A DNA stretch of 64,000 nt from Escherichia virus KFS-EC, in sequence record MH560358; one strand, given 5' to 3'. This document shows, piece after piece, positions 3,344-59,357 of this stretch; positions within the stretch are counted from its first letter, which is position 1; every line of letters starts with the position of its first letter. A program made the position numbers and the translations under genes. Below the pieces are notes generated by a model. It saw only the letters and a list, made by a program, of their open reading frames with translations, searched no databases and was not told where the DNA came from.

Positions 3344-3688
3344 TTATTTTTTCATGAGCTTAATGGCTTCTTCCATAGCCAGCACATTTCGATAGTTAGG
3401 GTATCGTGTTAGATCGTCATACATTCGCTTAAGGGTGGAAACTTCCTCAAACTCTGGGTTTTCTAGATACAGTTGAACAAATTGTTTCTCTACCATCTCG
3501 GCTTTTAGCTTGTCTGCTTGTTCCTGTTCATATGATTTCGTTGGACCCAACACCAACAAAATGATAAAGGTGATCAACGGGCTAATGATCAATGATAGGA
3601 TAACATAACCGATAACGCTACGGTTTAAACGGCTTGCATACATGCCTACCAGGAAAACAAAAAGGATATAGATAAACAGAAAGAACAT
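3344..3688 (-). CDS. hypothetical membrane protein (two predicted hydrophobic segments)
   Basis: ORF track; N-terminal FFLFIYILFVFLVGMYA and second hydrophobic stretch. Confidence 0.5.
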   Translation of the reverse strand: MFFLFIYILFVFLVGMYASRLNRSVIGYVILSLIISPLITFIILLVLGPTKSYEQEQADKLKAEMVEKQFVQLYLENPEFEEVSTLKRMYDDLTRYPNYRNVLAMEEAIKLMKK

Positions 3689-3695: not shown

Positions 3696-4169
3696 TTACT
3701 CCTTATTTTCGCGCTCGTACTTTTCGAAATAAAATTCTACTGGCTGGTCATGAATTGACAGCAAGCCAAAGCGTTTAGCCGCTCGCAATCCCATATTGCG
3801 CTGAATGTACTTCTGGAAGTTCTCGCGTATACACTTACGCCAGTATTCTAAGCCCATACAGCTTTTATAAAGATTGCATTGCACACACGCCGGATTCATG
3901 TTATCAAGTATATCATGTTCCGGTTTATGCATTCCTACAACCTTATACTTCCACGATCCATCATCATTACGGGCAATTCGTCCATTTTCATCATAGACTA
4001 CCTTTGAGCGTCGCAATACTGGTTTGATGTGGTCTGCGTGCCAGCGATCCCCTAGTTCCTCGCCACAATAGGCACAGCGTCCACCATATTTCATTTTCAG
4101 GATCTGGCGTTGCTCTTTCTTTGACAATTTTTTAGGTTTAGGGGCTTTCGACCCTTCATTATCACACAT
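3696..4169 (-). CDS. HNH endonuclease (zinc-finger type), putative homing endonuclease
   Basis: CAYCGEEL...HADHIKP...N...CVQCN motif set. Confidence 0.7.
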   Translation of the reverse strand: MCDNEGSKAPKPKKLSKKEQRQILKMKYGGRCAYCGEELGDRWHADHIKPVLRRSKVVYDENGRIARNDDGSWKYKVVGMHKPEHDILDNMNPACVQCNLYKSCMGLEYWRKCIRENFQKYIQRNMGLRAAKRFGLLSIHDQPVEFYFEKYERENKE

Positions 4170-5658
4170 CGAATACCTCTTTTACTGTATTTGCAGTGGT
4201 CTTGTCGTAGCGAATACGTTTGATGATCGGGAGAAATAAAGAGAACTCCGGTTCATCTTCTTTACGTGATTTGCTGCGAATGTACCCGTTGCATGTCATC
4301 TCAATGACTTTTCCAATCAGGTTATGACGGTCAGCCCATAACATTTCTCGGTCTAGTTCATTTCGACGATCGAACGGAATTACACGTTCAATACCATCAT
4401 CACCTTTTTCGGTTGTGGTGTCGGTTAATCCCGATCCGGTGTTAGTCATCATTCGTCCGCACGCACTACGGACAGTAAAACCGCCTACCTTATTAGGATC
4501 TTTACTATGCGGATATACATCAACAATTTCAGCGTCGAAGTCAATCACTTCTTTAAATTTAACCTGATCTTTACTGCGACGATCTTCAAATACACCATGT
4601 AAATTTTTAAGGATAATACCTTCTAAGCCCATGTTTACATAGCGATGATATACTTCGCGAGCTTCATCGATATTGTTAACTACAGTATTTTCGATTATCT
4701 GAACACGAGGATCGTTAAGTTCTTCAACAATCTGTTTTAGTTCTTCGAATCGATCTTTATATTGCTTCGTTGCTTTCTCGTTTCCGTAATACACATCACG
4801 GTCGATAACATCCCAGACAGTATAAACAATACATTGGGCTTCTTCTTTTGGAATAGTTCCTTTAAGTGATTTGTTGAGGATACCATTTCCGGTCTGACGG
4901 TCTGCAACAACGGATTCTTTTACTGCTTCCGCTACTGGCGTTAATGGCATTTCCTCTTCTTCAAATATCCATGACAGAGTACCATCATAAACGCTTTCAA
5001 CGAAGTTCTGCGCTGGTGTTTGCGAAAGGGTAGGCATATATACCAATTCGCCATCTAGAACAATTCCACGGCCTCGTAGACGCTCTAAAACCGCAAACAA
5101 ATCATCAAGTCCCTGATAGGTATTACCTGAACGGGTATAGATTGCTAATGTTTCCCCGTCAATATCAGCCATACCACGAGCGCCATCGCTTTTAAGTTGT
5201 GCATACGCCGGATACTTGATATTAGCAATAGTCTTATCAGAACATGACGATGCAAGGTGGCACGGCTGCTGGGGGATCAGTTTCTTCCATACCTTGTTTG
5301 CGGTGGTAGCGGAACAACCGCATTCCAAATCACGATTCAGGACCATCATTGCAACTTTAGCATCATCTTCTGACAAGCAGGTCAGAGTATCGGTAACTAG
5401 CTGTAATGCTGCGTTACCAGTTACTTGACGCGTGGCAAGTTTATTTTTAAAGACCTGTAATGCACCGGATAAAGACAATACAGACGAATAACGCGATGGT
5501 TTATCGTATTTCTTTACGCCAAACGTAACCTGTTTGCAATATGCCAGATAAAAGCATTCTTTCAGCGTTTCATTGCTCGCGGATTCTTTCAGGATCTTTT
5601 CTTTCAGCGATGTTTTGTCTGTTGCTGCAAGCTGGTTAATGATATTAAGAATTGACAT
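4162..5658 (-). CDS. 30: ATP-dependent DNA ligase
   Basis: Adenylation motif AQLKSDGARG (KxDG); ~500 aa; T4-like position; start set at internal ATG (track start is GTG). Confidence 0.9.
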   Translation of the reverse strand: MSILNIINQLAATDKTSLKEKILKESASNETLKECFYLAYCKQVTFGVKKYDKPSRYSSVLSLSGALQVFKNKLATRQVTGNAALQLVTDTLTCLSEDDAKVAMMVLNRDLECGCSATTANKVWKKLIPQQPCHLASSCSDKTIANIKYPAYAQLKSDGARGMADIDGETLAIYTRSGNTYQGLDDLFAVLERLRGRGIVLDGELVYMPTLSQTPAQNFVESVYDGTLSWIFEEEEMPLTPVAEAVKESVVADRQTGNGILNKSLKGTIPKEEAQCIVYTVWDVIDRDVYYGNEKATKQYKDRFEELKQIVEELNDPRVQIIENTVVNNIDEAREVYHRYVNMGLEGIILKNLHGVFEDRRSKDQVKFKEVIDFDAEIVDVYPHSKDPNKVGGFTVRSACGRMMTNTGSGLTDTTTEKGDDGIERVIPFDRRNELDREMLWADRHNLIGKVIEMTCNGYIRSKSRKEDEPEFSLFLPIIKRIRYDKTTANTVKEVFDV

Positions 5659-6124
5659 TTTCACCTCGTTTTGTTAAACGTTCACGAATATCATTGAGGA
5701 TACTACAAAATTCCGATTCAGTCAATATAGTCTTTAACGGATCAGTTCCACCTATGCTATGACGTAATTTCTTATTTCCGGTAGCGAGTAATGCTTTACA
5801 AAATTCTGGGTTATTCCGTGCCATCGTAACAAATGCCAGATGTACCAGTCTGTAATAATGCTCACTCATTCGATGAATCGGGCGACCCTGAAAATATAAC
5901 ATGTGATTCTCAATCTTTTCAGATCTTCCGGTTCTTTTTGCTTTGCCACCGTGCATCAAAAAGATTTCTCTTTGTCTCTGAGGGTTCTTAAATCTTAGCC
6001 CCTGTAAAAATCCTTCTGTGCTGTTAATATCGCAACCAAATAGACGGAATGGTCTTTTATTGAAATTACTCAATTCACCCGATGGATAAGGTCCACCCGC
6101 ATAGATATCAATTTCAGAAGTCAT
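5645..6124 (-). CDS. NADAR (YbiA-like) domain protein
   Basis: 159 aa; SNFNKRPFRLFG...TEGFLQGLRF and ...ALLATGNKKLRH resemble the E. coli YbiA/NADAR fold (alignment from memory); 3' end overlaps ligase start. Confidence 0.55.
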   Translation of the reverse strand: MTSEIDIYAGGPYPSGELSNFNKRPFRLFGCDINSTEGFLQGLRFKNPQRQREIFLMHGGKAKRTGRSEKIENHMLYFQGRPIHRMSEHYYRLVHLAFVTMARNNPEFCKALLATGNKKLRHSIGGTDPLKTILTESEFCSILNDIRERLTKRGENVNS

Positions 6125-6360
6125 TGAAACTAATCTCGCTAATCAGAGAGAACGGATCATAATCGTCATTAGGAATATCGATAGTAATCGAATGAGGATT
6201 TACCCATACACCAAACTGGTCTTCATCGGTGAATACTTCGGTATGGATTTCGTGGATGTTTACATTCATAGTTTTCATAATAAAATTCCTTAATAATCAA
6301 TAACTTACAAAATCATATAGCCAAAATATAGGCGGGATTATTTCCCGCCGTTTAAAATCA

Positions 6361-6684
6361 TTAACCGTAAACTACAACAATATTCTGTTTGTGTGTTACA
6401 GTCCATTTCAGATCGATCTCTTCTTCCTTCTTAACGCCATTAATAACGTCTGGATGAGGAACTTTATTAAGTTTCCCATGAGGAAGCAATACAGTCTTGC
6501 CCAGCAATTCTTTATCAACGTTATCACCGATATCAATAATCTTACCGACTAAAGGAATCTCTCCCATAGTTCGTTTTTGCTCGATGATAATACCAAAATC
6601 GCTCTTTACTTCGGTCCCTGCGCTTTCCGCTTTAGCTTCAATGATCACATAGTCACCAAGTGCTTTAGGAGTTTTAACGGTCAT
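6361..6684 (-). CDS. 31: GroES-like co-chaperonin (gp31 family)
   Basis: 107 aa; GDYVII and NKVPHP motifs; position between cd and ligase as in T4. Confidence 0.75.
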   Translation of the reverse strand: MTVKTPKALGDYVIIEAKAESAGTEVKSDFGIIIEQKRTMGEIPLVGKIIDIGDNVDKELLGKTVLLPHGKLNKVPHPDVINGVKKEEEIDLKWTVTHKQNIVVVYG

Positions 6685-6720
6685 AATTTTCTTACCTCTT
6701 CAATTCATCTCAATAGTAAA

Positions 6721-7332
6721 TTATTTATATTTCGCGACCTTTGGATTTCTCCGCAGACCGGAATGTATTTGCGCTATACAACAATAAGAAACATTAAACA
6801 TATCAGCTATAATTTGCTTCTTAACTTTTCCTTTAAGCCGCATTATTTCTTCGACTTGCGCATTTGTCAGTTTTGCCCGTGAGTGGTTTTCACCGACATT
6901 GTTATTGAGTCCAGTTCTAAATGAATGTCTCATATTTTCTAGTAAGGTTACTATTTCTAGATTCCACACATAATTGCAGGTTTTTACACCATTGATGTGA
7001 TTAACCTCAAGTCCGGTAACGTCTCCTAGAAATGCATTTGCTACAAGTCGATGTATCTTTTCGGCTTTAACTGAGATTTTACCATTGTCTTTTTGTTTTG
7101 ACAATGTTGAATAATAATATCCATATCGGTCTAAAATTGGTTTTATTATTTTACCAGCACGTTTTTGTTTTACGAGCTTAATATTACCGGGAGAAACTTC
7201 TCTATAAAATTCGATACTTCGGTCAATAGATCTCAATCTACCATAATTAGAGATTTCATACCACGGATAACCTACAGCTTGTCTCCATTCTTCCGGCGCT
7301 GGTAATACGATATTATCATCTTTTGTTTCCAT
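6721..7332 (-). CDS. HNH homing endonuclease with NUMOD4-like N-terminal motif
   Basis: WRQAVGYPWYEISNYGRLRS (NUMOD4-like) followed by HRLVANAFLG...EVNHINGVKTCN (HNH_3); start at internal ATG. Confidence 0.7.
   Translation of the reverse strand: METKDDNIVLPAPEEWRQAVGYPWYEISNYGRLRSIDRSIEFYREVSPGNIKLVKQKRAGKIIKPILDRYGYYYSTLSKQKDNGKISVKAEKIHRLVANAFLGDVTGLEVNHINGVKTCNYVWNLEIVTLLENMRHSFRTGLNNNVGENHSRAKLTNAQVEEIMRLKGKVKKQIIADMFNVSYCCIAQIHSGLRRNPKVAKYK
6722..6729 (-). promoter_or_regulatory. T4-type late promoter box TATAAATA
   Basis: Exact TATAAATA on minus strand about 40 nt upstream of gene 31 start. Confidence 0.4.
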
Positions 7333-7334
7333 TG

Positions 7335-7655
7335 TCAACTACCACCGTAAATTTCTACGATCTGTGCTGGAGTCAGCCCGTCTACATTAATCAGACTATC
7401 AAGCCCAAAACTACGGAAACCTTCAACTGCAATTTCATATACTGGCAAAGATGTTTCTGATTCTTTACGCGGTTTTTCAACATTAGGAACTAACCACTTT
7501 TCGTATGTTTCGAAAGGCATCAGTGCCGGATCTCGCGTGGCGATCATCTCGCGGACAGTACCATCTTTCTTAGTAAACTGCAAAGAGTGAGTACCGACCG
7601 AAAACATTTTCTTTAGTGCTTCACGAAGTGCGATATTATCAATTTGTTCGGTCAT
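7335..7655 (-). CDS. hypothetical protein (106 aa)
   Basis: ORF-track frame; start moved to internal ATG (track start is TTG). Confidence 0.4.
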   Translation of the reverse strand: MTEQIDNIALREALKKMFSVGTHSLQFTKKDGTVREMIATRDPALMPFETYEKWLVPNVEKPRKESETSLPVYEIAVEGFRSFGLDSLINVDGLTPAQIVEIYGGS

Positions 7656-8154
7656 TATCAATACCCTTCAAATCAGTCAATAATGCTTTTGGAATACGCG
7701 TGATCGTAATATCTGCATTATTCAGAATATCAGCCCAATCACGCCCACCATTTCGATCATATGTGTCGCAATAGTATAGATGTTTAATTCCACTGTTTGC
7801 AATTGCTTTAGCGCAATCTGGACACGGTGAAGCAGTACACCACATACTAGCGCCTTCAATCGATACACCGCTACGGGCAGCAAACAAAATAGCATTTAAT
7901 TCAGCGTGGATCTCGTTTTTCTGTGACCATGCACTATGCTCTGGTCGTTTTTCTGGGATCATTTTGCCGTCATCATCCAGCCAACCGCTTTTATGTGCAT
8001 GACAGCTACAATTTATTTGCCCTGCTGGAGTTCCGTTAAATCCAGTAGAAATGATTCGCCCGTCTTTTTCGATCAGTGCGCCTACCTTCCACGAAACACA
8101 TTTAGAGTTCTTTGCGATCAGATAGGCGATCTGCATGTAAGTTTGTGACAACAT
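7639..8154 (-). CDS. cd: dCMP deaminase
   Basis: Zinc-binding motifs HAELNAI and PCPDCAK. Confidence 0.85.
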   Translation of the reverse strand: MLSQTYMQIAYLIAKNSKCVSWKVGALIEKDGRIISTGFNGTPAGQINCSCHAHKSGWLDDDGKMIPEKRPEHSAWSQKNEIHAELNAILFAARSGVSIEGASMWCTASPCPDCAKAIANSGIKHLYYCDTYDRNGGRDWADILNNADITITRIPKALLTDLKGIDNDRTN

Positions 8155-8175
8155 AATATAATCCTCACATATTAA

Positions 8176-8379
8176 TTAACCGTATACGCGAAAGTATTCT
8201 ACTGATCCGTCGCTATACTGTTTTACATTGAATGTATTCACACCATGATTATTTCTCATGATGACATATACACTGCGACGTTCATCGCTAAACGGCATAA
8301 CTGGCGCTGGTTCAATATCAACACTAAAACCACGTTTAGCAAGTGCTTCGCCTAATTGCTTGAGTTTATCGGTAAACAT
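8176..8379 (-). CDS. hypothetical small protein (67 aa)
   Basis: ORF track. Confidence 0.35.
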   Translation of the reverse strand: MFTDKLKQLGEALAKRGFSVDIEPAPVMPFSDERRSVYVIMRNNHGVNTFNVKQYSDGSVEYFRVYG

Positions 8380-9257
8380 TAAAATTCTCCGTAGTTAACC
8401 TGAAAACATTCTACACCAATTGAGCGGTACATGTCAACCACTTGATCACGGTCATCTACCGCCAAAACAACATGATAACGCGGTGCAATTTCAGAGAAGA
8501 AGATCTCTTTCTTCACTTCATGATCAGGACGACGATCATTAGTTTCACGTTGAAAGTGATCACTAGGTTCAATACCCTGTTCACGCAACCATTGCAGAGT
8601 ATCTTCTTCGCAAACATCCTCACGCCCTGAGCATGTGATGATACGATAACCATTATCACGATACAGTTTAAGCATTTCGATCACTTGCGGACGCGGTTTA
8701 TCTTCTTTGACCTTTGTCCAGTCAAACGGATGACGACCGCCCTTATCCGCTAATGTCCCATCAATATCAAAGATCACTGCCTTTGGCAGCATGGTATTCG
8801 GTTTGTATACTTCTTGACCCATATATTCCTGCATCAGATAAAATTGGTTGCGCAAATGAGAAAGTGGGATTGCTTTCTCTCCGCGATAGAAATTACGTTT
8901 CTTTAGTGTCTCAAATGATTCATTGAACACTTGTTCAGTATACACCGCGTTAAATTCTTTTGCAAGTTCTTTGTAGAATACACGATGTTTTTCTTTCAGG
9001 TTAGTATCAGAGATAATGATACTTAATCCGCGTGATAGAGTCTCACGAGCAATCATTCTCTGAATAGACTCTACCAGCTTTTCTTTTTCCTTAGTATACT
9101 TGTATTTCAAATGTGAGTCAACACCAAACAACATAAGACGAAGGTCATCACGATTCACATTACGATAATTACTAAACCGGTTACATGTTTCCATAGCCCA
9201 TGTAGTTTTACCAGACCCAGAACAACCAACGGTTAAAATCACTTCACATTTCGGCAT
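8379..9257 (-). CDS. pseT: polynucleotide 5'-kinase/3'-phosphatase
   Basis: Walker A GCSGSGKTT plus HAD phosphatase motif DIDGTL; start at internal ATG with SD AAGGAG. Confidence 0.9.
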   Translation of the reverse strand: MPKCEVILTVGCSGSGKTTWAMETCNRFSNYRNVNRDDLRLMLFGVDSHLKYKYTKEKEKLVESIQRMIARETLSRGLSIIISDTNLKEKHRVFYKELAKEFNAVYTEQVFNESFETLKKRNFYRGEKAIPLSHLRNQFYLMQEYMGQEVYKPNTMLPKAVIFDIDGTLADKGGRHPFDWTKVKEDKPRPQVIEMLKLYRDNGYRIITCSGREDVCEEDTLQWLREQGIEPSDHFQRETNDRRPDHEVKKEIFFSEIAPRYHVVLAVDDRDQVVDMYRSIGVECFQVNYGEF

Positions 9258-9709
9258 TATTTCTCCTTCGGTTTGCACCGTTCCTCATTAAGTTCTTTGC
9301 GATAATAACACATGATCAACTTACTTTCAAGTGTATATCTCTTAATATCCGCAAGCCAGACTCTAAATTTTTGGGAGTCCTCCCACGACATAGAAACTCT
9401 AGGTTTACCGTCTATTGTATCCACTTTCAGGTCAATGTCAACTTTTTCTATTGGTGCTGGTAGTGAAGGATGTAATTTCGGTTCCTGTGAATAATGGTCC
9501 ATTGTACACGAAGAAAGCGCAAATACAATAGGCACAGCGAAGACGTGGATTATGGCGGTCTGGAAATTCTTATGTGCTTTCTTAAACATCCAGTGTATCA
9601 CGAAAATTGAAAACACCATCAGGATAATAATGCTTGCACCTATCCACAGATAATCAACCAGATTAAAATTGCTTATCTGCTCTTGTGTAGGCAATATTTC
9701 TATGCTCAT
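9257..9709 (-). CDS. membrane protein with lipobox-like FALSSC; possible spanin component
   Basis: Two hydrophobic segments; ATGA overlap with upstream gene; strong SD AAGGGAGG; sits next to pseT where T4 has its spanin genes. Confidence 0.4.
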   Translation of the reverse strand: MSIEILPTQEQISNFNLVDYLWIGASIIILMVFSIFVIHWMFKKAHKNFQTAIIHVFAVPIVFALSSCTMDHYSQEPKLHPSLPAPIEKVDIDLKVDTIDGKPRVSMSWEDSQKFRVWLADIKRYTLESKLIMCYYRKELNEERCKPKEK

Positions 9710-10029
9710 TTAGTAGCCTCCCTTAACTCTTCGGTAAACTCCTTAAATGAATCATTAAGCTGTTTCTCTACCAACTTGGGTTTTTGTGCTACTACATAGC
9801 CTCGTGTAGCGTCTTTCATTGCTTTGTTTTGTTCTTCTGCAAACTTAGTTCTTATTCCGTGCATCTCTTTTTGCAGCGAGTCTACAATCTTCATCTTCTC
9901 ATCGGTCTTTTTCTTATACTCTGTAAATTCCTGATTCAGTCGATCTACCTCCTTTTTATTTTCCCACCACATATTGCCACCTACCCCCAGCAATACAGAG
10001 ATGATAACAATGTATATCAGCTTTGACAT
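9706..10029 (-). CDS. type II membrane protein with coiled-coil, i-spanin-like
   Basis: Start at internal ATG (MSKLIYIVIISVLLGVGG...); N-terminal TM then charged helical region. Confidence 0.45.
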   Translation of the reverse strand: MSKLIYIVIISVLLGVGGNMWWENKKEVDRLNQEFTEYKKKTDEKMKIVDSLQKEMHGIRTKFAEEQNKAMKDATRGYVVAQKPKLVEKQLNDSFKEFTEELREATK

Positions 10030-10073: not shown

Positions 10074-11243
10074 TTACCAATCAATCTTATCAGCCGGAAT
10101 CAGTTTCTTATAATTCCGTAGATAGTAAGTTTTCATTGAATCCAGAATACGGTCATAATCAAGACCATCAAATGCAATCATCAGACACATGAAAATATAT
10201 GCTTGTGCATCACCATGTTTACGTGATTCGATAGTCGCATTTGATGCATATGTCTTTCTGTCTTCTCCCGCGTGTGCGTTATAAAATTCTGTTGCTGTCG
10301 TGAAGGCATTGCGAAGAATAGACCTGAATGCTTCCTCGAATAGCTCGATTCTTTCCAGTGCTTCCGGTTCGCCTTCATATGCAGCACGCAAATCATCGGT
10401 TTCGCTTTCTACGACATAGTAGATCAGGTTATTAGGAAACATCGATGTGTTTTTAATGTTATGCACACCAATATACCATTCACTCTTCACTTTGAACAGT
10501 TGACCGTCTTTAGTGCGTGCAACAATTCCTTCGATACCTTCTGCGGTCCGAACTTCGTCAAGAATATTGCTAAAACGCGCTGAATCAACCTGTAACGCAT
10601 TTACCAGATGAGGACGTAGGATTGCGTCAGCAAATAGCATTTGATGCGGTACGTACTCTCCTGTGACGTTATGACGTACATTCAGAAGTGTTAGCGACGG
10701 TTCAGAATATTCTACAACAATTCGGTTGCTGGGCGCTGTATATTCAAAGTTGAAAGTATAATCAGACCCAATATCAGCAATCTTAGCGCGTAGATCCGCA
10801 TACTTCTCTGAATACAGAAGACCGTTTGCTCTCTCTGCCTGGCTTGAGTACAAGGCCGCTTTAGACTTCAACTGAACATAGCCGTTATCAATGTAGGTGC
10901 TTACTAGACTACCGTCCATTTTGTCCATGACCATTTCCACATCTTCCGGCTTAAAGCGAGCGCGATCATTCTCGCCTAAATTAAAAAACTTCTCCATAGG
11001 ACGAGATGCAATGCGGACTGGTCGGTCTTTATCGTCAATTTCAAACATGATCCCGCGACACTCTAACGCATCTGGTTTATTCCACATTTCAGGTTTGCTC
11101 AAGTACAGATAGCTAAAAATGCGCATACGGGTTTGCATCGCCGTAATTTCATCTTTGTAATAGAACGTATCAGATCCGTCACATAGTGCCATCAGATTTT
11201 TGAACAATGCTAAAACTTTTTTGTTGTTTTCTTTTGTTGACAT
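10074..11243 (-). CDS. rnlA: RNA ligase 1
   Basis: Nucleotidyltransferase motif KMDGSLVSTY (KxDG); 389 aa. Confidence 0.8.
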   Translation of the reverse strand: MSTKENNKKVLALFKNLMALCDGSDTFYYKDEITAMQTRMRIFSYLYLSKPEMWNKPDALECRGIMFEIDDKDRPVRIASRPMEKFFNLGENDRARFKPEDVEMVMDKMDGSLVSTYIDNGYVQLKSKAALYSSQAERANGLLYSEKYADLRAKIADIGSDYTFNFEYTAPSNRIVVEYSEPSLTLLNVRHNVTGEYVPHQMLFADAILRPHLVNALQVDSARFSNILDEVRTAEGIEGIVARTKDGQLFKVKSEWYIGVHNIKNTSMFPNNLIYYVVESETDDLRAAYEGEPEALERIELFEEAFRSILRNAFTTATEFYNAHAGEDRKTYASNATIESRKHGDAQAYIFMCLMIAFDGLDYDRILDSMKTYYLRNYKKLIPADKIDW

Positions 11244-11640
11244 AATTTGTGTTCCATTCTGGTTTAAATTTGGTGATCAAAACAGGTTCTTCGATATCGG
11301 CAGTGCTTATAATATCCTTACCTGTTGGATTTTCTATGCACAACTCAAAGCACTGGCGGTAATAGAATGTTACTATCTTCCCTTCCTCTAGCGCCTTATG
11401 AATATTCTTACTCTTGCGAGTATCTGCCGTTGGTGTTTGTCTGTTAATGCTCGTCCGGTAATAATTGATCCGCTTTCTGAGATTGATAGTCTGACCAATG
11501 TATACCAGTTCATCATCAACCGCAATAGCATAAAGAACATTTAAACGGTTTTTCTGAGGAGGTAGAATCACATCACCATCTTTACACTCTAAACATGAAT
11601 ATTTAACGAATCCATAGTTTTCTATTAGCTCATTAATCAT
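11179..11640 (-). CDS. GIY-YIG-like small endonuclease domain protein
   Basis: VLYAIAVDDELVYIGQTINLRKRINYY matches the GIY...YIG...R pattern; 153 aa; 3' end overlaps rnlA start. Confidence 0.45.
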   Translation of the reverse strand: MINELIENYGFVKYSCLECKDGDVILPPQKNRLNVLYAIAVDDELVYIGQTINLRKRINYYRTSINRQTPTADTRKSKNIHKALEEGKIVTFYYRQCFELCIENPTGKDIISTADIEEPVLITKFKPEWNTNYVNKRKQQKSFSIVQKSDGTM

Positions 11641-20042: not shown

Positions 20043-20070
20043 ATTATACATCATCTGTGTTCGGCGTCAA
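20043..20070 (-). promoter_or_regulatory. sigma70-like promoter TTGACG-N16-TATAAT
   Basis: Minus-strand motif upstream of gene 19682-20011. Confidence 0.5.
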
Positions 20071-20396
20071 CCTTTTTGTTCCATGAAAAGCGGTGCTGTT
20101 TCTTCTTTCAGTTTAATAACTAGCGCGGAAACTTCATCAAGAAAATCTTTTTCCATATGAGCAAGCATTGATTTAGAATCTTTGATGACTCTCAAAGAAT
20201 ATTCACTTAGATTTCCTTTTCCTAACAATAATGCGGGACACACACTATGTGGGATCTCGATTTCATGATATTCACTCATAGTATAATATTTGTGAATTTT
20301 TAAATCTATATTTCTTCGTTGTACGTCTACATCAGCAATGACATACAGACGTTCGATTTTATCACTTTTTTGAGAAAGGGTAGCATTCAAAAACAT
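20067..20396 (-). CDS. hypothetical protein (109 aa)
   Basis: ORF track. Confidence 0.45.
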   Translation of the reverse strand: MFLNATLSQKSDKIERLYVIADVDVQRRNIDLKIHKYYTMSEYHEIEIPHSVCPALLLGKGNLSEYSLRVIKDSKSMLAHMEKDFLDEVSALVIKLKEETAPLFMEQKG

Positions 20397-20426
20397 TGTT
20401 AATCCTCCGTTGTTTCGATGTGTGTA

Positions 20427-24510: not shown

Positions 24511-25092
24511 TCATCCTCTTTTTGGAAAATTTAAATAAGCATACTCGCCAACTATTTCATGTGCTGCACGGTCATAAGCCTTAGCCGCCTCAACTTCTGT
24601 CTCAAAGTATCCTAGATGTATATTCTTTCGATTGATAACAATATACGCCTTCCACGGCTTTTTCTTGCTTGGTGATAATGATACACCTTTATATTTGCTA
24701 TGGCAAGCCTTTTTCTTTGAGACGTTAAACTGATTTTGCTGTTCGGTTGCTTCTCTCATGTTTGACGGTCTATTGTTAGTTTTGTCTTGGTCTATGTGAT
24801 CTATTCGTTCAACCTGAGTACCATACTCTAAAAACCAGACAACTCTATGTACAAACAGATTAAGTTTATGACCATTGTTGTAAAATGTAAAGTATAAATA
24901 TCCTTCTTTATGGAGACATACCCTTACCACATCACCTTTTTTGTATATGGACCCTTCTTTTCGGAATCCAGCAGCTACAGAATCCTTTAAATGGTATAAT
25001 ATTCCATCGACATGATAGAATCTACCTTTTATCGCTTTCTGTGTCTCGATATCCCAAAATTTTGTTTTTGCCACAACAAACACCACACACAA
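24511..25092 (-). CDS. HNH homing endonuclease with C-terminal AP2-like DNA-binding domain
   Basis: HRVVWFLEYG...IDHIDQDKTNNRPSNMREAT (HNH_3) plus YKGVSL...WKAYI...LGYFETEVEAAKAYD (AP2-like). Confidence 0.7.
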   Translation of the reverse strand: MCVVFVVAKTKFWDIETQKAIKGRFYHVDGILYHLKDSVAAGFRKEGSIYKKGDVVRVCLHKEGYLYFTFYNNGHKLNLFVHRVVWFLEYGTQVERIDHIDQDKTNNRPSNMREATEQQNQFNVSKKKACHSKYKGVSLSPSKKKPWKAYIVINRKNIHLGYFETEVEAAKAYDRAAHEIVGEYAYLNFPKRG

Positions 25093-31803: not shown

Positions 31804-34566
31804 ATGGCAGATTTAAACAGAATCCAGTTTAAACGCACTAGCGCAGCCGGACGTAAACCGGATGCTGGTACGATGAATCCGGGAGAGTTGGCAATTAACT
31901 TAGCAGACCAATATCTGCTTACAAAAAATGATGGTGGGCAAATTGTTAATTTAAGCTGCCCTCCAGTTTATGACAAGAGCGTTAATGTAAAAGGTCGTGT
32001 GGTTGCAGATGACCTTATGTGGAGTAATACCGCAAACTATTTCGATGACCCGACCGCACGAAATCTTGATAAATTTGGGGCATTTCGTACTAATGATATG
32101 GATGGTCATCTAGCACTTGCTTTGCATATTCCCCATCCTAGCGGTATAAATCATGCTCGTGGGTTTGATTTTACTTATGGTTCTAACGTTGTTCCTACTG
32201 TAAAAACCTATGGTTATAACGCTGATGGTGTATTGGCATATTCATATCGCATGTATCACGAAGGTGATAAGCCTAGTCCGTCAGAATTAAATGTATACAG
32301 CAAACAAGAAGTAGACCGGATGTTCCAGAAGACCATCAACTTTGGTGTAGAAACTGGATGGTTTAAAATTGCTACCGCCTTTATTCCGCAAAATGATGGA
32401 CGTAGCTTGAAAATTAGATTGATTGGTGGAAGTGGGTGGAACGTAGGACAAACTGGACAATGTAATATTATTGAACTTGTTATAAGGACTAGCAACGGTT
32501 CGCCTAAAGGAATTAACTTTGTTGCGTATCATCATGTTTCTGGTTACGAAAATCAATTTTGTGCCATTAATACAGGTGATGACACTTATGATATCTATGC
32601 ATATTACTTCGAATTTACTAATATGGTAATGGCTGAATATCAAGCGTCCAGCGGTGTTAATTTAACTGTACTTGATCGACCTGAATATGTCGGCGAAAAA
32701 CCTGTAGCTGATCATATCTATGATGCATATACAATATACTCCTTTAACAGTTTCAGTAACCGTGGAACGTTAAATTTTGCTGGAAACCCTCAAGGCCAAT
32801 ATGACATTGAGCATTTGAACGTGCAACAAACTAACAGCAAAAAGATGTTGCGTCGCTTCCGTAGTTCTGGTCCTGCCACTATCTGGCATGAGACAGTTGA
32901 TGATAACCAGTATCGTCTTGCTACTGGATACGAAGATACAAATCAGGAATTATTGCTGACAGCAACATCCGGGTTACATGTCAAGAAATTAACATTGGAT
33001 GGCGGTGTCACTGGAAATTCTGGTATTGATATTCGTCGAGGACCAAACGAATCAAGCCATTTTAATTTCATGGATTATCGCACTGGACAAGATGTTCGTA
33101 ATGGTTGGTTTGGTTTTGGTGATGGAACAACCAAAGATTTTATTTGGTGGAACGATAACGGTCAAAACTCTATAAACCTGATTGAAGACGGTGAATTACA
33201 TATTACTGGCGGTAGAGGCCAGAAAATTGTAATGAATAGCGAAGTTGCATTATCTGAAAATGCTCGTTTGGCTGTTAAAGGTGGCAATTATGGCTTAATT
33301 TTTAGAAATGATGGCGTTGGCTTCCATATTCTTACCACAGATCTCGGTGATTCATTTGGACCGTGGAATACTCGTAGACCATTCAGCTATGATTTTGCGG
33401 ACGGTGGATTGTATTTAGGTGGTACTGCAACCGCTCGTTGTTTGCATCTGGGAATTGATGGTAGCACTCGTCTCGAAGACAACCTTTTCTTTAAAGCTGG
33501 TTCTCGTCAATCTATGGACTATATGGAACTAGTCCATTGGGGGGCAAGCAATACAGGTCGAAATAACGTTTTAAGTCTTCGTGACTCAAAAGGATTTTTC
33601 GCAGAATTTGAACGATTGGGTGATGATACCATTAAAAACACCTTCTTCGGGAAACTTAAAGTTAATCGTGGTTCTGACGCAATCGTCATGAATGCCGAAA
33701 CGGGTGATTCGTCTATATATTTGCTGGGTACTTGTGCTGATAATAACAACTGGTATATCGGTAAAGGTGGTGCTGATAATGGATTAGCGTTCTATAGCTA
33801 TGCTACTAATGCTGCTATCAATATTACAAACGCTGGTGATATCGCGCTAAGTCCAAAAGGTGTCGAAATGACTCATGTCAATAACGTTCGATTCTATGTT
33901 CATGGTGAACGTTGGACTGCTAGCCAATCTGGAGGCTGGGGCGATCAATGGGGATTAGAAGCGCCGATATTTGTCGATCATGGTTATGTTGGACCAGATA
34001 GCTATTATCCAATTATTAAAGGAAGAAGTTTAATCACCAATCAAGGGTATACAACTGCCGTCGATTTTGGTCTTCGTCGTGTTCCTCAAAATTGGGGGCA
34101 AGCTATTATTCGTGTTGGATCTGCGGATGCATCGCCAGCGGCTGGTCATCCTCAAGCTGTATTCGAGTTCCATCATGATGGTACTTTCTATTCTCCTGGT
34201 AATGGTAACTTTAACGATGTTTATATTCGTTCCGATGGTCGTCTGAAAATTAATGTTGAAGATTACGAAGAAAATGCGGTGGATAAGGTAAATAAACTCA
34301 AAGTTAAAACCTACGATAAAGTTAAATCTCTTAATGACCGAGAAGTTATAGGTCATGAGATTGGTATTATCGCACAGGATTTACAAGAGGTATTACCGGA
34401 AGCTGTTAAAACCGCAAAAATTGGTGGTCTTGATAACCCAGAAGAAATTTTAACAATTTCAAACTCCGCAGTGAACGCGCTTTTAATTAAAGCGGTCCAA
34501 GAAATGAGCGAAGAAAATAAACTTCTTCGTGAACGTCTTGCTGCAATTGAAGCTAAATTAGGGTAA
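31804..34566 (+). CDS. 37: long tail fibre distal subunit with C-terminal chaperone-like domain
   Basis: MADLNRIQFKRTSAAGRKPDAG...GELAINL N-terminus; 920 aa; C-terminal SDGRLKINVE...GIIAQDLQEVLPEAV...coiled-coil tail. Confidence 0.85.
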   Translation: MADLNRIQFKRTSAAGRKPDAGTMNPGELAINLADQYLLTKNDGGQIVNLSCPPVYDKSVNVKGRVVADDLMWSNTANYFDDPTARNLDKFGAFRTNDMDGHLALALHIPHPSGINHARGFDFTYGSNVVPTVKTYGYNADGVLAYSYRMYHEGDKPSPSELNVYSKQEVDRMFQKTINFGVETGWFKIATAFIPQNDGRSLKIRLIGGSGWNVGQTGQCNIIELVIRTSNGSPKGINFVAYHHVSGYENQFCAINTGDDTYDIYAYYFEFTNMVMAEYQASSGVNLTVLDRPEYVGEKPVADHIYDAYTIYSFNSFSNRGTLNFAGNPQGQYDIEHLNVQQTNSKKMLRRFRSSGPATIWHETVDDNQYRLATGYEDTNQELLLTATSGLHVKKLTLDGGVTGNSGIDIRRGPNESSHFNFMDYRTGQDVRNGWFGFGDGTTKDFIWWNDNGQNSINLIEDGELHITGGRGQKIVMNSEVALSENARLAVKGGNYGLIFRNDGVGFHILTTDLGDSFGPWNTRRPFSYDFADGGLYLGGTATARCLHLGIDGSTRLEDNLFFKAGSRQSMDYMELVHWGASNTGRNNVLSLRDSKGFFAEFERLGDDTIKNTFFGKLKVNRGSDAIVMNAETGDSSIYLLGTCADNNNWYIGKGGADNGLAFYSYATNAAINITNAGDIALSPKGVEMTHVNNVRFYVHGERWTASQSGGWGDQWGLEAPIFVDHGYVGPDSYYPIIKGRSLITNQGYTTAVDFGLRRVPQNWGQAIIRVGSADASPAAGHPQAVFEFHHDGTFYSPGNGNFNDVYIRSDGRLKINVEDYEENAVDKVNKLKVKTYDKVKSLNDREVIGHEIGIIAQDLQEVLPEAVKTAKIGGLDNPEEILTISNSAVNALLIKAVQEMSEENKLLRERLAAIEAKLG

Positions 34567-34604
34567 TTGGAAAGCGGGGAGAAATCTCCGCTAAGGATTC
34601 TTAT

Positions 34605-34928
34605 ATGGGATATTGGGTAAGTAGTGAAATTAATACTAAAATCGATGCTTTAAAATGGCATGTATTTGATATTCCTAACGGCTATGGTACTGCTCGTGCT
34701 GGTGTCGCTGTAATGCGTCATAATGCTGGTGGTGGGTGGTCTGATGCACATATTAACGTAGATGGTTTGACCGTTGCTCGTCGTCGTGGTGGGACCAATT
34801 GGGGATCTACTATAAATTCGTTTGTTCCTGCTGGCTGCACCGTCTCCTTTGGTTTAGGGGGTGAAGGTGGTGACTCAGAATTGCTTTTGCATGGCTTTTG
34901 TGTGTCTGGAAGTCATAAGGGGTCATGA
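34605..34928 (+). CDS. hypothetical glycine-rich protein downstream of gene 37
   Basis: 107 aa; GGGW, GGEGGD glycine-rich stretches; SD AAGGA upstream. Confidence 0.4.
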   Translation: MGYWVSSEINTKIDALKWHVFDIPNGYGTARAGVAVMRHNAGGGWSDAHINVDGLTVARRRGGTNWGSTINSFVPAGCTVSFGLGGEGGDSELLLHGFCVSGSHKGS

Positions 34929-35087
34929 TTGGGGACAGATCCATTCTTGTATTGTGCCGCAGGGAGTAACGATCACGGTAACTACAAACAGGGGTATTTC
35001 CCATCTTCGTTATAGACGCTTGAGCAACCGTTAAAAAAAGAATTAAGGAAAACTCCCAGGGAAGGGAACTACTAAGGAGAAACGGCT

Positions 35088-52161: not shown

Positions 52162-52475
52162 TATCCTAAAATCCTCACCTTGCGAACACAGATAGTATTG
52201 AGTTCTCGCCGTACCCGTTCTTTTTCATATTCAGGAATTTTATATTCGATACCATCCCGAACAATTTCAGAAGACCGGATTATGCCAAATTTTCGTTTAG
52301 GTACAACCTTGTATTTCGGTTCACCCGCCAATAGACTCTCACAATAATCTATCTGATCACACATTGACGCTAACGCAGCATCATGTGTTTCGCAAGTTAG
52401 GACGCGACCCTTCGCGTCCACTGAGTATTGAAAGAATCCGTCTTTATCACGATAACATATAGCAAATACATGCAT
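52161..52475 (-). CDS. hypothetical protein (104 aa)
   Basis: ORF track; ATGA overlap with dda. Confidence 0.4.
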   Translation of the reverse strand: MHVFAICYRDKDGFFQYSVDAKGRVLTCETHDAALASMCDQIDYCESLLAGEPKYKVVPKRKFGIIRSSEIVRDGIEYKIPEYEKERVRRELNTICVRKVRILG

Positions 52476-53230
52476 TATAAACCTACCTTCGCTTTCATCA
52501 ATTCAATCCACGACGCATCAATCGGAAGCCCGTATTTCACGCGTTCTTTTTGTGCTGGCGTTAAGTTCTCATACTTAGAAAGAGATTCAATCAAAACGCT
52601 GGTATATTTTAGCACGATTTCGGTATTGTTTGCAATAGCCTTAAGTTTTTCTTCTTTCTTGTTGATTTCGCTAAGGGCTTGCTTGAGATCTGCAATTTTC
52701 TGATAACGTTCTTCCATACGGAAGAGAGTATTTTTAATCGCTCGCTCGGCTGCCTCTGCTTTCTCCGGTTCGTTGTGCTTTTTGTGGCGCTCGATTGCTA
52801 ATTTCTTTTCTTCGATTGCTATTTCCTGATTTTTGATGCGATTCTCGTTAAGTTCGATCCACTCGATGTACTTCGCACGTAGGGTAATTTCATCATCAGA
52901 AAGTTTACCGTTAGTTCCTAGTTCCTGGATCTCTTTAAGAGATTCGATAGTGTGATTGCCACGGAAAGAATTGTATTTCCGTTTAACCGGAATTACATTG
53001 CCATCAACATATCCTAGATTGCAATCAATGCGCTCTAAGGAGAGTCCATCATCACCTTCACCGAACGCTTCACCTGAATATGCGCAATGAGTCTGACGGT
53101 AAATGTTACGCACAGTGACTAAGCTCATAGAGAAGTCTTTGTTGCGACGTGAAGCGCCAGTCATGATAGAGTTCAGACGGAAAACAACCAGCGCCAATTC
53201 TTCGTTAGATTTAAAAGCAAACAGTTTCAT
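52475..53230 (-). CDS. hypothetical protein with degenerate HNH-like N-terminal region and C-terminal coiled coil
   Basis: HCAYSGEAF...LSLERIDCNLGYVDGNVIPV pattern; 251 aa; own promoter. Confidence 0.4.
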   Translation of the reverse strand: MKLFAFKSNEELALVVFRLNSIMTGASRRNKDFSMSLVTVRNIYRQTHCAYSGEAFGEGDDGLSLERIDCNLGYVDGNVIPVKRKYNSFRGNHTIESLKEIQELGTNGKLSDDEITLRAKYIEWIELNENRIKNQEIAIEEKKLAIERHKKHNEPEKAEAAERAIKNTLFRMEERYQKIADLKQALSEINKKEEKLKAIANNTEIVLKYTSVLIESLSKYENLTPAQKERVKYGLPIDASWIELMKAKVGL

Positions 53231-53864: not shown

Positions 53865-54383
53865 TTAGTAGCCGCGTTCTTGACGGGCGAAGTTTTCAGC
53901 ATTTTTCAGATAGTACAGCTTGAAGATATCCTTAGCGGTTAAACCTAAGCCCAGCATTTTAATCAGCACAAAATGCCAGATATCGATCAATTCCATCGAA
54001 ATTTCGGTTTTATCGTCATCTGACAGGTCAGCAAATTTACGCGATCGTGCTTCGCCGTGGTTTTTCTTCCACACTTTAGTAATTGCGCTTGCATCTTTGC
54101 CATTTGACATGCCACCCAGGGCAACATAAAGTTCTCGTGTCTCGTCGTCGATTGCGTCATCCCACAACTTCATCCAGTCAAGGATTTCTCCACAAGTTTC
54201 CAGCTTATCAGGATGCGGCACCCACTCAAATTTATCAGCTAGTGCGACCTGTAATCCTTTTTGCATATCTAACATTACTTGCAGCGGATCTTTGCCGCTA
54301 GTGATTGCCTCGGAATACGCAATACCAGCTTTAGACATAGTTTCATCATTAACAAGACCAGCACAAGAATTAAATTCACTCAT
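53865..54383 (-). CDS. 56: NTP pyrophosphatase, gp56 (dCTPase/dUTPase)-like
   Basis: 172 aa; position adjacent to gene 61; conserved C-terminal LYYLKNAENFARQERGY; start at internal ATG. Confidence 0.6.
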   Translation of the reverse strand: MSEFNSCAGLVNDETMSKAGIAYSEAITSGKDPLQVMLDMQKGLQVALADKFEWVPHPDKLETCGEILDWMKLWDDAIDDETRELYVALGGMSNGKDASAITKVWKKNHGEARSRKFADLSDDDKTEISMELIDIWHFVLIKMLGLGLTAKDIFKLYYLKNAENFARQERGY

Positions 54384-54393
54384 AATAAACCTC

Positions 54394-54957
54394 TCAAATA
54401 ACATTAAACACTGCAAATTCACCGTGATACTTATACGCATAGTCATTATATACTATTGCGGCGTCTATTTCTAGGTCAAATTGTCCTATATAGACTTTAT
54501 TTCCTTCATTGTCCCTTATCTGGGCGACCCATTTACCCGAACGACTATTATAATGCACTCCTTTAAAATTGCTAGTTTTAGTTTGGTTATTTCTTCTCAT
54601 ATTTTGGGTATTCTGTTTTTGTGTCGCCTCTCTTAAGTTTGGAGGGTCGTTGTTTTCTGGATTCCCGTCAATATGGTCAATGACAGGTGGGCAATACCCA
54701 TGCTCTAAGAAGAATACTATTCTATGCACAAGCTCAAAATATTGTTTTCCTTCAAAAGAAAACGAGACTTTTAGGTGTCCGGCTGTGACTTTAGATACCT
54801 TTACTATATCACCAACCTTATAAAACTGGCCTTCTTTCGTCGTTCGGCTTGCTTTGCTGTTTGTTTTATGAATCAATATACCACTTTCGTGTCTATATCT
54901 TCGACGTATTTCATCCTTTAGTTCATCGCTCCATTCTTTGGCTTTCCTTACCCTCAC
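54394..54957 (-). CDS. HNH homing endonuclease with C-terminal AP2-like domain
   Basis: HRIVFFLEHG...IDHIDGNPENNDPPNLREAT plus FKGVHY...WVAQI...IGQFDLEIDAAIVYN; paralog of 24511-25092. Confidence 0.7.
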   Translation of the reverse strand: MRVRKAKEWSDELKDEIRRRYRHESGILIHKTNSKASRTTKEGQFYKVGDIVKVSKVTAGHLKVSFSFEGKQYFELVHRIVFFLEHGYCPPVIDHIDGNPENNDPPNLREATQKQNTQNMRRNNQTKTSNFKGVHYNSRSGKWVAQIRDNEGNKVYIGQFDLEIDAAIVYNDYAYKYHGEFAVFNVI

Positions 54958-54974
54958 AATACAACCCTCATTAA

Positions 54975-57630: not shown

Positions 57631-59043
57631 TTAGAAAGTCATGTTATTTGCTAGCTCGTCGAGTTTTTCTCGTTTCTCGGCTTGCTGTGCGCTTTGTGGT
57701 TTAACCTGTGCATTCTCCTGATCTGCGATCTGGTTTGGGACTTCATACCAACGCTGATTGCCTTTTTTCACACCAACGTTAAACCGTGAATAATAGTTCT
57801 TATCACCGTAACGAGACTTGATCTGCTTCATGAGTTGGACGCCCATTTTAGCCAGGTCTTCGGTTTCGATAACACCCAACATAAAGTCGGCAGTAGCCGG
57901 AAGACCTGCCGATTCAGCGGTATCACTCATGTTAAGGTCGGAAGCATCCCAACCCGCGCGGGTAGTCTGTGCCGCAGTCCAACCAACAACATCCCACTTA
58001 ACAAAAAATCCTCGCAGTTCTTCCGCAATCGCCTTAACTAGTGTGTAACTATTTTCAGAGTATACACGCAAGCGAGACGATGCGCAAATCCCAAGATAGT
58101 CAACAATCACAACATCAGGTTTAAACTGTTTCTTGAGTCGCAATTCATTCATTAACGCCTCAAAGTGATTGGAGTTCGCGCCACCAGTCGGATACTGCTT
58201 GATCATCAATTTTCCAACCGGACGATCTCCGTTCTTCTTATTCTTAACCCGCTTCATACGTGCGGAATATTCCGCAAAAGAAACATTACCATTATCCAAT
58301 TCATCTAATGTAATGTCAAGCAAGTTTGCGTCAATACGTTTGGCTACGACATGCTCTGCCATCTCCATTGAGATATACAATACATCATAACCACATTCCA
58401 TATAATCCGCAGCAAGAGAACACAGTCCAAGCGATTTGCCAACGTTTACACCAGCAAGCAACACATTTAGCGTTTTTCTTTCCGCCCCTCCTTTCGTGAT
58501 TTTATTCAACATCGGCAGCTTAAATGGGATCTTATTCGCCTTAGTCTGATATAACAGGAATCGTTTTTCAAAGTCATTAAACCAGTCATGACCTACATCA
58601 GAATCAAACGTAATGGATAGTGCTTCCTGCATAATTTCAGGAATAGCGCCCTCACTAGGCAATTTCTTATTCTGTTTCTCTTTTGGTAGTTGTGCGTTCG
58701 CCTGAATCTCTAGCGCCCGTGACATTGCATTGTACATAGCACGGTCACGAATAAATTTTTCGGTTTCCTTCATTAACCAATCAAGGTCTTCCGGTGTATT
58801 CTCCAGCGAATCGAGAAGAGTTTTAGCCCCTTCATATGTTGTCTGATTGCCTCTCTCCTTGTCTAAAGCAATCTGTAATGCAGTTGGCGTAGGAATATTG
58901 GAATATTCGTCTACGTGCTTTTTAATCAGCTTATAAATCAGTTTTTCTTCGTCTTCGGTGAAGTAGTCCGCTTTAAGGTGAGGCCATACATTCGTAAAGA
59001 ATGCGCCATTGTAAATCAACTGTGAAAAGATAGTTTTAATCAT
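57631..59043 (-). CDS. 41: replicative DNA helicase (DnaB-like)
   Basis: Walker A GVNVGKS; 470 aa. Confidence 0.95.
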   Translation of the reverse strand: MIKTIFSQLIYNGAFFTNVWPHLKADYFTEDEEKLIYKLIKKHVDEYSNIPTPTALQIALDKERGNQTTYEGAKTLLDSLENTPEDLDWLMKETEKFIRDRAMYNAMSRALEIQANAQLPKEKQNKKLPSEGAIPEIMQEALSITFDSDVGHDWFNDFEKRFLLYQTKANKIPFKLPMLNKITKGGAERKTLNVLLAGVNVGKSLGLCSLAADYMECGYDVLYISMEMAEHVVAKRIDANLLDITLDELDNGNVSFAEYSARMKRVKNKKNGDRPVGKLMIKQYPTGGANSNHFEALMNELRLKKQFKPDVVIVDYLGICASSRLRVYSENSYTLVKAIAEELRGFFVKWDVVGWTAAQTTRAGWDASDLNMSDTAESAGLPATADFMLGVIETEDLAKMGVQLMKQIKSRYGDKNYYSRFNVGVKKGNQRWYEVPNQIADQENAQVKPQSAQQAEKREKLDELANNMTF

Positions 59044-59357
59044 ACGTAGCCCCCAACTACACGCATAACAAAGGTCTTGAGTTTATACCAGAAAGTTTCT
59101 TTTTTCAACTTTTCTTCTGCTTCTTTGATCTGCGCGGTTAACGCCTTAATGACGTGTGGATATACCACATCACGATCTGACGGCGTGGAGTAGTCGACCA
59201 CAATACCTTTAGTGTCTGGATCGTATTCAACATTATGAATATAGACAATATGATGTTCTCCCTCTTCATCAACAATTATCAGTTCCTGAATAACTGTCTT
59301 CATTGCTTCTTGAATCAAGCTGTGTGCTTCTTCTAAACTTGTTGGTTTCTTATCCAT
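59040..59357 (-). CDS. hypothetical protein at the gene 40 position
   Basis: 105 aa between uvsX and 41; assignment by position only. Confidence 0.35.
   Translation of the reverse strand: MDKKPTSLEEAHSLIQEAMKTVIQELIIVDEEGEHHIVYIHNVEYDPDTKGIVVDYSTPSDRDVVYPHVIKALTAQIKEAEEKLKKETFWYKLKTFVMRVVGGYV

Follow-up and report, generated by a model that had tools for sequence, protein, structure and literature searches.

The window analysed here, a stretch of 64,000 nucleotides (nt) from Escherichia virus KFS-EC (sequence record MH560358), contains three open reading frames (ORFs) on the minus strand, referred to in the following as ORF A, ORF B and ORF C, which are intact genes for HNH (His-Me finger) nucleases of three different architectures. 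ORFs B and C are probably free-standing genes spread by intronless homing, and ORF A is a fixed and retained nuclease in the same reading. Genes for free-standing homing endonucleases are well known for driving mosaicism and marker exclusion among T4-type phages, and a preliminary description, made from the sequence letters, had assigned all three ORFs to this class. It had located the genes correctly (at 3696–4169, 6721–7332 and 59399–60148), and searches against the Pfam and PHROG profiles recovered the HNH domains it assigned to ORFs A and B; ORF C matches the 'homing endonuclease' profile phrog_655 and has an intact HNH motif, with a Pfam HNH score below cut-off. The label of a free-standing homing endonuclease fits ORFs B and C as well as two further HNH-AP2 genes of the window, which are sporadic insertions relative to the reference phage RB49, but it does not fit ORF A, which is present throughout the genomes compared and is constrained like DNA ligase.

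The window stems from a Krischvirus (an RB49-like T4-type coliphage) and is 97–99% identical around the HNH loci to 57 Krischvirus records, i.e. those holding the ligase region. A 58th record that appears in some of the searches is a 1.5 kilobase (kb) fragment with gene 31 of RB49. Mapping of the whole window onto RB49 by blastn displays collinearity, save for a few replaced segments (6708–7347, 20078–20398, 24523–25091, the distal tail-fibre region, 54378–54965 and 59372–60158). Genes in the regions around the three ORFs all lie on the minus strand. Comparison of presence and absence separates ORF A, found in 57 of 57 records, from four sporadic genes: ORF B (10 records), ORF C (3 records) and the two HNH-AP2 genes (7 and 6 records). 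The four sporadic genes assort independently among the Krischvirus records, and no genome of the phage collection carries all of them; pEJ01, which comes closest to the window in the uvsX region, lacks only the second HNH-AP2 gene. The phage of the window is therefore a new mosaic of known parts. Public Krischvirus genomes already contain annotations for all of these genes, in several cases with the explicit name HNH homing endonuclease, and no experimental characterisation of the ORF A, B or C proteins is apparent in the literature searched. An identity of the three ORFs as components of defence systems was considered and found no support; scans with NCBIfam and PADLOC gave only generic sub-threshold HNH matches (retron/PtuB, IscB, Cas9 and DpdF-type).

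ORF B (6721–7332, minus strand) is an intact free-standing homing endonuclease gene of 203 amino acids with two domains above the Pfam cut-offs, NUMOD4 (44.2 bits; cut-off 23.4) and HNH_3 (35.4 bits; cut-off 24.8). The HNH_3 motif is intact in the translation (VNHINGVKTCNYVWNLEIVTLLENMRH), and the C-terminal segment appears helix-turn-helix-like by eye. Upstream of ORF B lies gene 31.1 (7335–7661, minus strand; WYL_2/SH3-like, Pfam WYL_2 1.3e-9, RB49 annotation), and on the other side gene 31, which encodes the GroES-like co-chaperonin (6361–6684, minus strand; phrog_931 5e-36, RB49 annotation). An earlier placement of ORF B between cd and gene 31 is accurate on the side of gene 31 and approximate on the side of cd, as gene 31.1 intervenes and cd (7639–8154) is located one gene beyond. 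A TTG start of ORF B at position 7338 was rejected; it overlaps the end of gene 31.1, and the relatives annotate the ATG at 7332.

Between genes 31.1 and 31, an insertion of 640 nt that includes ORF B (6708–7347 in the blastn map) replaces a 25-nt stretch of RB49. Empty sites read GTCGAAATT directly followed by TATAAATAATTC, where TAT AAA TAA represents the final codons and the stop of gene 31.1. Filled sites read GAAATT followed by TACGGTGGTAGTTGACA and the ATG on the left, and GTCGCGAAATA followed by TAAATAATTT on the right, so that the insertion junctions are GAAATT/TA...GAAATA/TAAATAA. ORF B terminates on the former stop codon of gene 31.1, the C-terminus of which is altered by the insertion from YK to YGGS (each followed by the stop). 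The T4-type late-promoter consensus TATAAATA (6722–6729, minus strand) is located at the stop of ORF B, and at the stop of gene 31.1 in empty sites, and is kept ahead of gene 31 at filled and empty sites alike. By this position it is a putative late promoter; the motif is not enriched in the window (3 occurrences versus 5.4 expected). Copies of ORF B are broken by frameshifts in 2 of the 10 records, namely in G37-3 by a 1-nt deletion inside the HNH motif (nt 352) and in FL20, where the gene aligns in two pieces. The protein is 100% identical in E26, ECD7 and PHB13, and the ratio of non-synonymous to synonymous polymorphism (pN/pS) of the intact copies is 0.063, which denotes purifying selection. 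A scan of IMG/VR with ORF B returned only ECD7 itself and one relative of 32% identity.

Linked to ORF B is a divergent tract (6469–6718) that comprises codons 11–72 of gene 31, the ribosome-binding site and the spacer. In an alignment of 5.1 kb from six carriers and four non-carriers of ORF B, all 37 of 37 perfectly segregating single-nucleotide polymorphisms (SNPs) are located inside this tract and none on the side of gene 31.1. The window is 82% identical to the non-carriers within the tract versus 97–98% on both sides of it, and 32 of the 36 codon differences between gene 31 of the window and of RB49 (31 synonymous, 5 non-synonymous) fall within codons 11–72. A search with the tract (252 nt) across 58 records displays at least 98% identity in exactly the 10 carriers of ORF B, and 83.4–92.3% in the other 48. 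Such co-occurrence of tract and gene is the expected signature of intronless homing with co-conversion, and the linkage points to gene 31 as the predicted target of ORF B. UPWr_E1 and JK32, which are without ORF B, have a mosaic gene 31 with carrier-type alleles at 6469–6553 and non-carrier-type alleles at 6562–6720, beside the insertion site. These mosaics narrow the region tied to the absence of ORF B to roughly codons 1–40 of gene 31 together with the spacer, and they could reflect either partial co-conversion or a recombination event that removed the endonuclease gene.

ORF C (59399–60148, minus strand) is an intact Mob-type HNH homing endonuclease gene of 249 amino acids with an I-TevI-like C-terminal DNA-binding domain. 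It matches phrog_655 ('homing endonuclease', 4e-49) and, just over the cut-off of 27.0 bits, the Pfam domain I-TevI_DNA-bd (27.7 bits, 2.6e-6). The score for Pfam HNH (PF01844) of 18.6 bits is under the cut-off of 21.4, and the HH...N...H motif is intact (EIHHVKPRCMGGTDDHENLVPLTPEEHFTAH). The gene starts with the ATG at 60148 between uvsX and the gene 40/41 region, as had been described. A longer version from 60175 was rejected, its start being located inside the terminator hairpin of uvsX that RB49 also has. The intact copies of ORF C display a pN/pS of 0.14, again purifying selection, and a scan of IMG/VR with ORF C gave no match.

The insertion with ORF C (59372–60158) comprises 787 nt in place of 3 nt of RB49, between the terminator of uvsX and the ribosome-binding site of gene 40. 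Upstream lie uvsX itself (60200–61270, minus strand; RecA-like recombinase by RB49 annotation) and its intrinsic terminator hairpin (60185–60167, minus strand), which is present at empty sites too. The downstream neighbour is gene 40, the head vertex assembly chaperone (59040–59357, minus strand; Pfam Phage_head_chap 6e-25). Within the 3' end of ORF C, a sigma-70-like element TTGACA-17-TAAAAT (59412–59384, minus strand; 11/12 match to the consensus) faces genes 40 and 41. It is missing from the empty site, and is a putative promoter for these two genes.

The divergent tract linked to ORF C (60159–60760) spans the terminator of uvsX and the last ~560 nt of the gene (residues ~178–356). In an alignment of 7.8 kb with four carriers of ORF C (the window, pEJ01, Sf20 and JEP8) and three non-carriers, 56 SNPs segregate perfectly; 50 of them are located in 60157–60760, and none on the side of genes 40 and 41. 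The window is identical to pEJ01 in this tract, and both are 79% identical to the non-carriers and 81–83% to Sf20 and JEP8, versus 97–99% outside the tract; the non-carriers are 98.7–99.3% identical to each other within it. Synonymous divergence (pS) of uvsX is 0.42 in the tract versus 0.12 in the remainder of the gene. A query of 4 kb from the uvsX region matched the 56 records other than pEJ01 at 90–95% identity; therefore, the window-type uvsX allele is common to pEJ01 only. ORF C itself differs by 4–6% between the two carrier haplotypes, which suggests either two separate introductions or a single old one. Taken with the precedent of SegA in phage T4, the tract makes uvsX the predicted target of ORF C.

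Both tracts are one-sided, contiguous with the insert and about 18–21% diverged from the genomes without the respective gene, and scans of IMG/VR found no donor lineage for either of them. For the seg and mob genes of T4, cleavage takes place in a neighbouring gene at some distance from the insertion, and the sequence in between is co-converted during repair; segA lies downstream of uvsX, and SegA cuts uvsX (PMC2988022). ORFs B and C match the documented features of this group, namely sporadic presence, clean intergenic insertion, a diverged flank on one side and mosaics at the tract edge. The probable mechanism is that in a mixed infection with a relative without the gene, the enzyme would cut or nick the neighbouring conserved gene, with predicted sites in the 5' part of gene 31 for ORF B and in the 3' half of uvsX for ORF C. 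The recombination-dependent repair of T4-type phages would then copy the endonuclease gene and the adjoining donor sequence into the cut genome, and carriers would be protected because their own target region is a diverged allele. Purifying selection on the intact copies of both genes is consistent with active enzymes.

On the other hand, Krischvirus genomes are mosaic throughout, examples being the tail-fibre region and the exchanges of cassettes reported by Arbiol et al. (2010), and mosaics of gene 31 occur in genomes without ORF B. The tracts in gene 31 and uvsX might be ordinary mosaic segments of this kind, unrelated to any endonuclease activity, with ORFs B and C as inactive passengers. 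This appears improbable: both tracts abut the insert exactly and on one side only, ORF B and its tract co-occur perfectly across the 58 records, the intact copies of both genes are under purifying selection with intact catalytic motifs, and the layout mirrors the experimentally proven cases in T4.

ORF A (3696–4169, minus strand) encodes a stand-alone HNH nuclease of 157 amino acids with a Cys4 zinc site and is the ortholog of RB49 ORF212. It follows gene 30, the ATP-dependent DNA ligase (4162–5664, minus strand; Pfam DNA_ligase_A_M 2.8e-22, phrog_114 1e-141). The stop of the ligase and the start of ORF A overlap by the 8 nt that had been noted before (4162–4169, ATGTGTGA), which can be read directly in the sequence as ...GAT GTG TGA / ATG TGT GAT.... 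The ATG of ORF A falls within the final ligase codons, an AAGAGG ribosome-binding site lies upstream, and this arrangement suggests that ORF A is translationally coupled to the ligase. ORF A scores 27.0 bits (5e-6; cut-off 21.4) with Pfam HNH, and 2e-54 with phrog_2118 ('HNH endonuclease'); the Pfam domain aligns to the first half of the protein only, because of an internal insertion. In an alignment of 40 homologs, the residues C32, C35, D46, H47, N90, C95, C98 and N99 are invariant, i.e. the catalytic His and Asn residues and two zinc-binding CxxC pairs are all conserved, as is a C-terminal part ending in FYFEK. The AlphaFold2 model, examined for the beta-beta-alpha-metal fold, has a predicted local distance difference test (pLDDT) value of 91, and its Foldseek matches in the PDB are weak throughout (E at or above 0.05, template modelling score at most 0.5); they are mostly HNH domains (Gme HNH 4h9d, Cas9 HNH, Cap5 and McrA) with a few unrelated proteins. 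When the ORF A sequence was searched against the PDB, nothing below E = 0.18 was found.

The copies of ORF A in the 57 Krischvirus records have a DNA identity of 95.9–99.6%, and with the gene in every one of these genomes no empty site is therefore known. Over 12 genomes, pN/pS is 0.029 for ORF A and 0.027 for the ligase; the value for the neighbouring gp30.3 of 0.28 is ten-fold above that of ORF A. All 12 of the 12 copies examined are intact, pseudogene copies are absent from the records compared, and no divergent tract flanking ORF A could be defined. Hence, ORF A displays neither the sporadic presence with empty sites nor the relaxed constraint and decaying copies of a homing gene. Because of its presence in 57 of 57 records and a constraint equal to that of the ligase, ORF A is a fixed HNH nuclease gene and not demonstrably mobile. 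RB49ORF212c was listed among putative mobile DNA elements as HNH (Nolan et al., 2006; PMC1524935), a label that is unsupported by this distribution.

ORF A was not found in other Straboviridae. Its homologs outside the genus are one protein of 70% identity on a contig of 1.3 kb and otherwise proteins of at most 51% identity, 115–215 amino acids long (most of them 120–140), from siphophages and prophages. Seven of these homologs were examined for their genomic context. One lies upstream of a terminase; others belong to a lambdoid nin region or a replication module, follow a methyltransferase gene, or are located near recT, and the upstream gene is often overlapped. The seven contexts have no common neighbour and therefore indicate no function for ORF A by guilt-by-association. 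The family looks like a promiscuous free-standing HNH cassette, and ORF A is of homing-endonuclease ancestry.

This scatter over unrelated phages and prophages, typically against the 3' end of a gene of DNA metabolism, could be read to mean that all three ORFs are selfish homing genes, with ORF A merely fixed in the sampled Krischviruses and still homing into relatives outside the sample. The listing of RB49ORF212c as a putative mobile element (PMC1524935) and a variable cassette that starts right at the 3' end of ORF A point in the same direction. We regard this as unlikely, though as the most serious of the competing explanations, in view of the 57 of 57 presence with no empty site, the lack of pseudogenes and the ligase-equal pN/pS, set against a sporadic ORF B that is broken in 2 of 10 records; moreover, ORF A has no definable flanking tract, and a DNA-binding module was not detected in it.

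A connection with DNA packaging, in which ORF A would work with the packaging machinery as does the terminase-associated HNH protein of HK97-type phages (gp74), seems very improbable. Its basis is twofold. A homolog of 43% identity is gene 1 in phage Bas79, where the large terminase follows three genes further downstream, and the weak structural matches include the small nicking endonuclease Gme HNH from Geobacter (4h9d), which belongs to a small-HNH group that is probably terminase-associated. Against it, ORF A of Krischvirus is located in the early ligase operon, far from genes 16 and 17, and only one of the seven homolog contexts is near a terminase, the others belonging to replication, nin, recombination or methylase modules. 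The terminase of T4-type phages also carries its own nuclease.

Returning to ORF A as a fixed gene, it is today most likely a retained DNA nuclease that serves the phage or excludes competitors, and would no longer invade empty sites. Candidate roles are a nuclease acting together with the ligase, or a nuclease for competitor exclusion. More specifically, and as a tentative proposal only, ORF A may be a domesticated HNH nuclease that partners the ligase in a genus-specific module for DNA processing or competitor exclusion. Both proteins would be co-translated through the 8-nt overlap; ORF A might, for example, nick or cut foreign or damaged DNA, and the ligase might reseal the phage DNA. If true, such a module would account for the retention, throughout Krischvirus, of a gene of selfish origin under a constraint as tight as that on an essential enzyme.

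Several points weigh against the overall reading of two homing genes and one fixed nuclease. The 57 records contain several GenBank/RefSeq duplicates and near-identical isolates, and hence are not independent. The linkage of ORF C is based on four carriers, and the two carrier haplotypes are 17–19% apart. Cleavage by the products of ORFs A, B and C, and their exact target sites, are predictions from sequence. Both tracts could have come in with the respective gene by ordinary recombination, with a nuclease that is inactive today. A separate DNA-binding domain was not detected in ORF A, and a gene under such strong constraint could still be actively selfish, constraint alone being no exclusion of this.

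Directly 3' of ORF A, a small membrane-protein cassette of the RB49 ORF211 type is located at 3344–3688 (minus strand). It is variable, being present in roughly 20 of the 57 Krischvirus records and missing from Phi1, ECD7 and pEJ01, and the indel begins within the last codons of ORF A (ERENKE versus EREHQEK, each followed by the stop). After the cassette, an early promoter of the form TTGACA-stem-loop-TATACT is found at 3330–3302. It looks like the 'promoter early stem-loop' cassettes that have been proposed as recombination points (Arbiol et al., 2010).

The presence of homing endonucleases in a T4-type phage is textbook knowledge, and the present finding is an ordinary one that adds some useful detail. 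New is the recognition of ORF A as a fixed gene constrained like the ligase; the gene itself was known before. The annotation 'homing endonuclease', as used for genes of the RB49 ORF212 type, thus covers a fixed gene as constrained as the ligase, and annotation pipelines and safety screens for phage therapy should not count this type of gene as a mobile element. In addition, concrete predictions of targets are provided for two uncharacterised enzymes, i.e. codons 1 to ~70 of gene 31 for ORF B and the 3' half of uvsX for ORF C.

The preliminary description had counted six putative homing endonucleases in the 64 kb, including the two HNH-AP2 genes and a GIY-YIG-like ORF. The former are confirmed by Pfam as HNH_3-AP2 homing endonuclease genes. 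One (24511–25092, minus strand) is located between rnh and gene 34, the other (54394–54957, minus strand) between genes 56 and 61, and both are insertions relative to RB49. The GIY-YIG-like ORF (11179–11640, minus strand) is denA, a conserved T4-type gene for endonuclease II. It is collinear with RB49 and the positional ortholog of RB49 denA, matches phrog_1111 ('endonuclease', 3.5e-51), and scores 22.2 bits with Pfam GIY-YIG, just under the cut-off of 22.6. T4-type phages degrade host DNA with this enzyme. The count of six is too high because this ORF is denA, and should be replaced by four sporadic genes of homing type, one fixed HNH gene and denA.

Further observations concern other loci of the window. 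An ORF at 52475–53230 was rejected as an additional HNH gene; it is the ortholog of the anti-sigma factor Srd, with weak PHROG matches to HNH and endonuclease VII families (2e-12 to 3e-5) and a CxxG...ERID...N motif, and may represent a degenerate HNH-derived fold. The longest ORFs of gene 56 (53865–54446) and of the second HNH-AP2 gene (54394–54957, GTG start) overlap by 53 nt. Since gene 56 of RB49 has 519 nt, the start of gene 56 is probably near 54383 and the overlap an artefact of choosing the longest ORF. RB49 has an 'endonuclease' gene of 486 amino acids (RB49p240) between gene 32 and the ORF located downstream of frd. At this site (about 20067–20398) the window has an unrelated ORF of 109 amino acids without a family match, which marks another site of exchange. 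In JEP8 (7033–10001 of the compared stretch, with an ORF of 274 amino acids in the gap) and in JSE (6246–9213 of the compared stretch), an insert divides the annotated DNA polymerase gene 43 into two parts; in the window, gene 43 (61532–63994) is uninterrupted up to the window end. The distal long tail-fibre region (32325–35034) has no alignment or just 75% identity with RB49 and represents the usual hypervariable segment of host range.

Comparison with known systems displays likenesses and differences for each of the three genes. Small stand-alone HNH nucleases and domains (Geobacter Gme HNH 4h9d; the HNH domains of Cas9, Cap5 and McrA) have the HNH core in common with ORF A, together with two CxxC pairs and the catalytic H-N-N pattern. 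In contrast to these, ORF A has a beta-hairpin insertion of ~30 residues between the His and Asn motifs, and its conserved C-terminal helical part ending in FYFEK is not seen in those structures. ORF B has the same two domains as the NUMOD4/HNH_3 phage endonucleases of the I-HmuI type. I-HmuI nicks DNA. Unlike the I-HmuI type, ORF B is free-standing and not intron-encoded, and its closest relative outside Krischvirus is 39% identical.

ORF C resembles the HNH Mob endonucleases of T4 (MobB, MobD and MobE), of which only MobE has proven activity in T4, in combining an HH...N...H motif at the N-terminal end, which would mark the nuclease, with a separate DNA-binding region at the C-terminus. Tequatrovirus homing endonucleases located beside uvsW, some of them annotated as mobD or mobE, match ORF C with 36–37% identity across 90% of its length, and the gene displays 74% DNA identity to T4 mobB over 90 nt, placed in the 3' third of ORF C. 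As in several mob and seg genes of T4, the coding end of ORF C holds a promoter-like site for the downstream gene. It differs from the Mob genes in its insertion site and presumed target, and in its sub-cut-off Pfam HNH score.

By position, the closest counterpart of ORF C is SegA of T4, a free-standing GIY-YIG homing endonuclease encoded between uvsX and beta-gt. ORF C is found in the corresponding slot immediately downstream of uvsX, and its linked sequence is the 3' part of uvsX. Inheritance of ORF C would be expected to follow the same route, in which the neighbouring gene receives a double-strand break and is repaired from the carrier genome with co-conversion (PMC2988022). ORF C differs in being an HNH and not a GIY-YIG enzyme, with no sequence relationship to SegA, and in having gene 40 instead of beta-gt as its downstream neighbour; cleavage of uvsX is a prediction in the case of ORF C. 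A second nuclease family in the slot of SegA downstream of uvsX suggests that this position has been favoured repeatedly.

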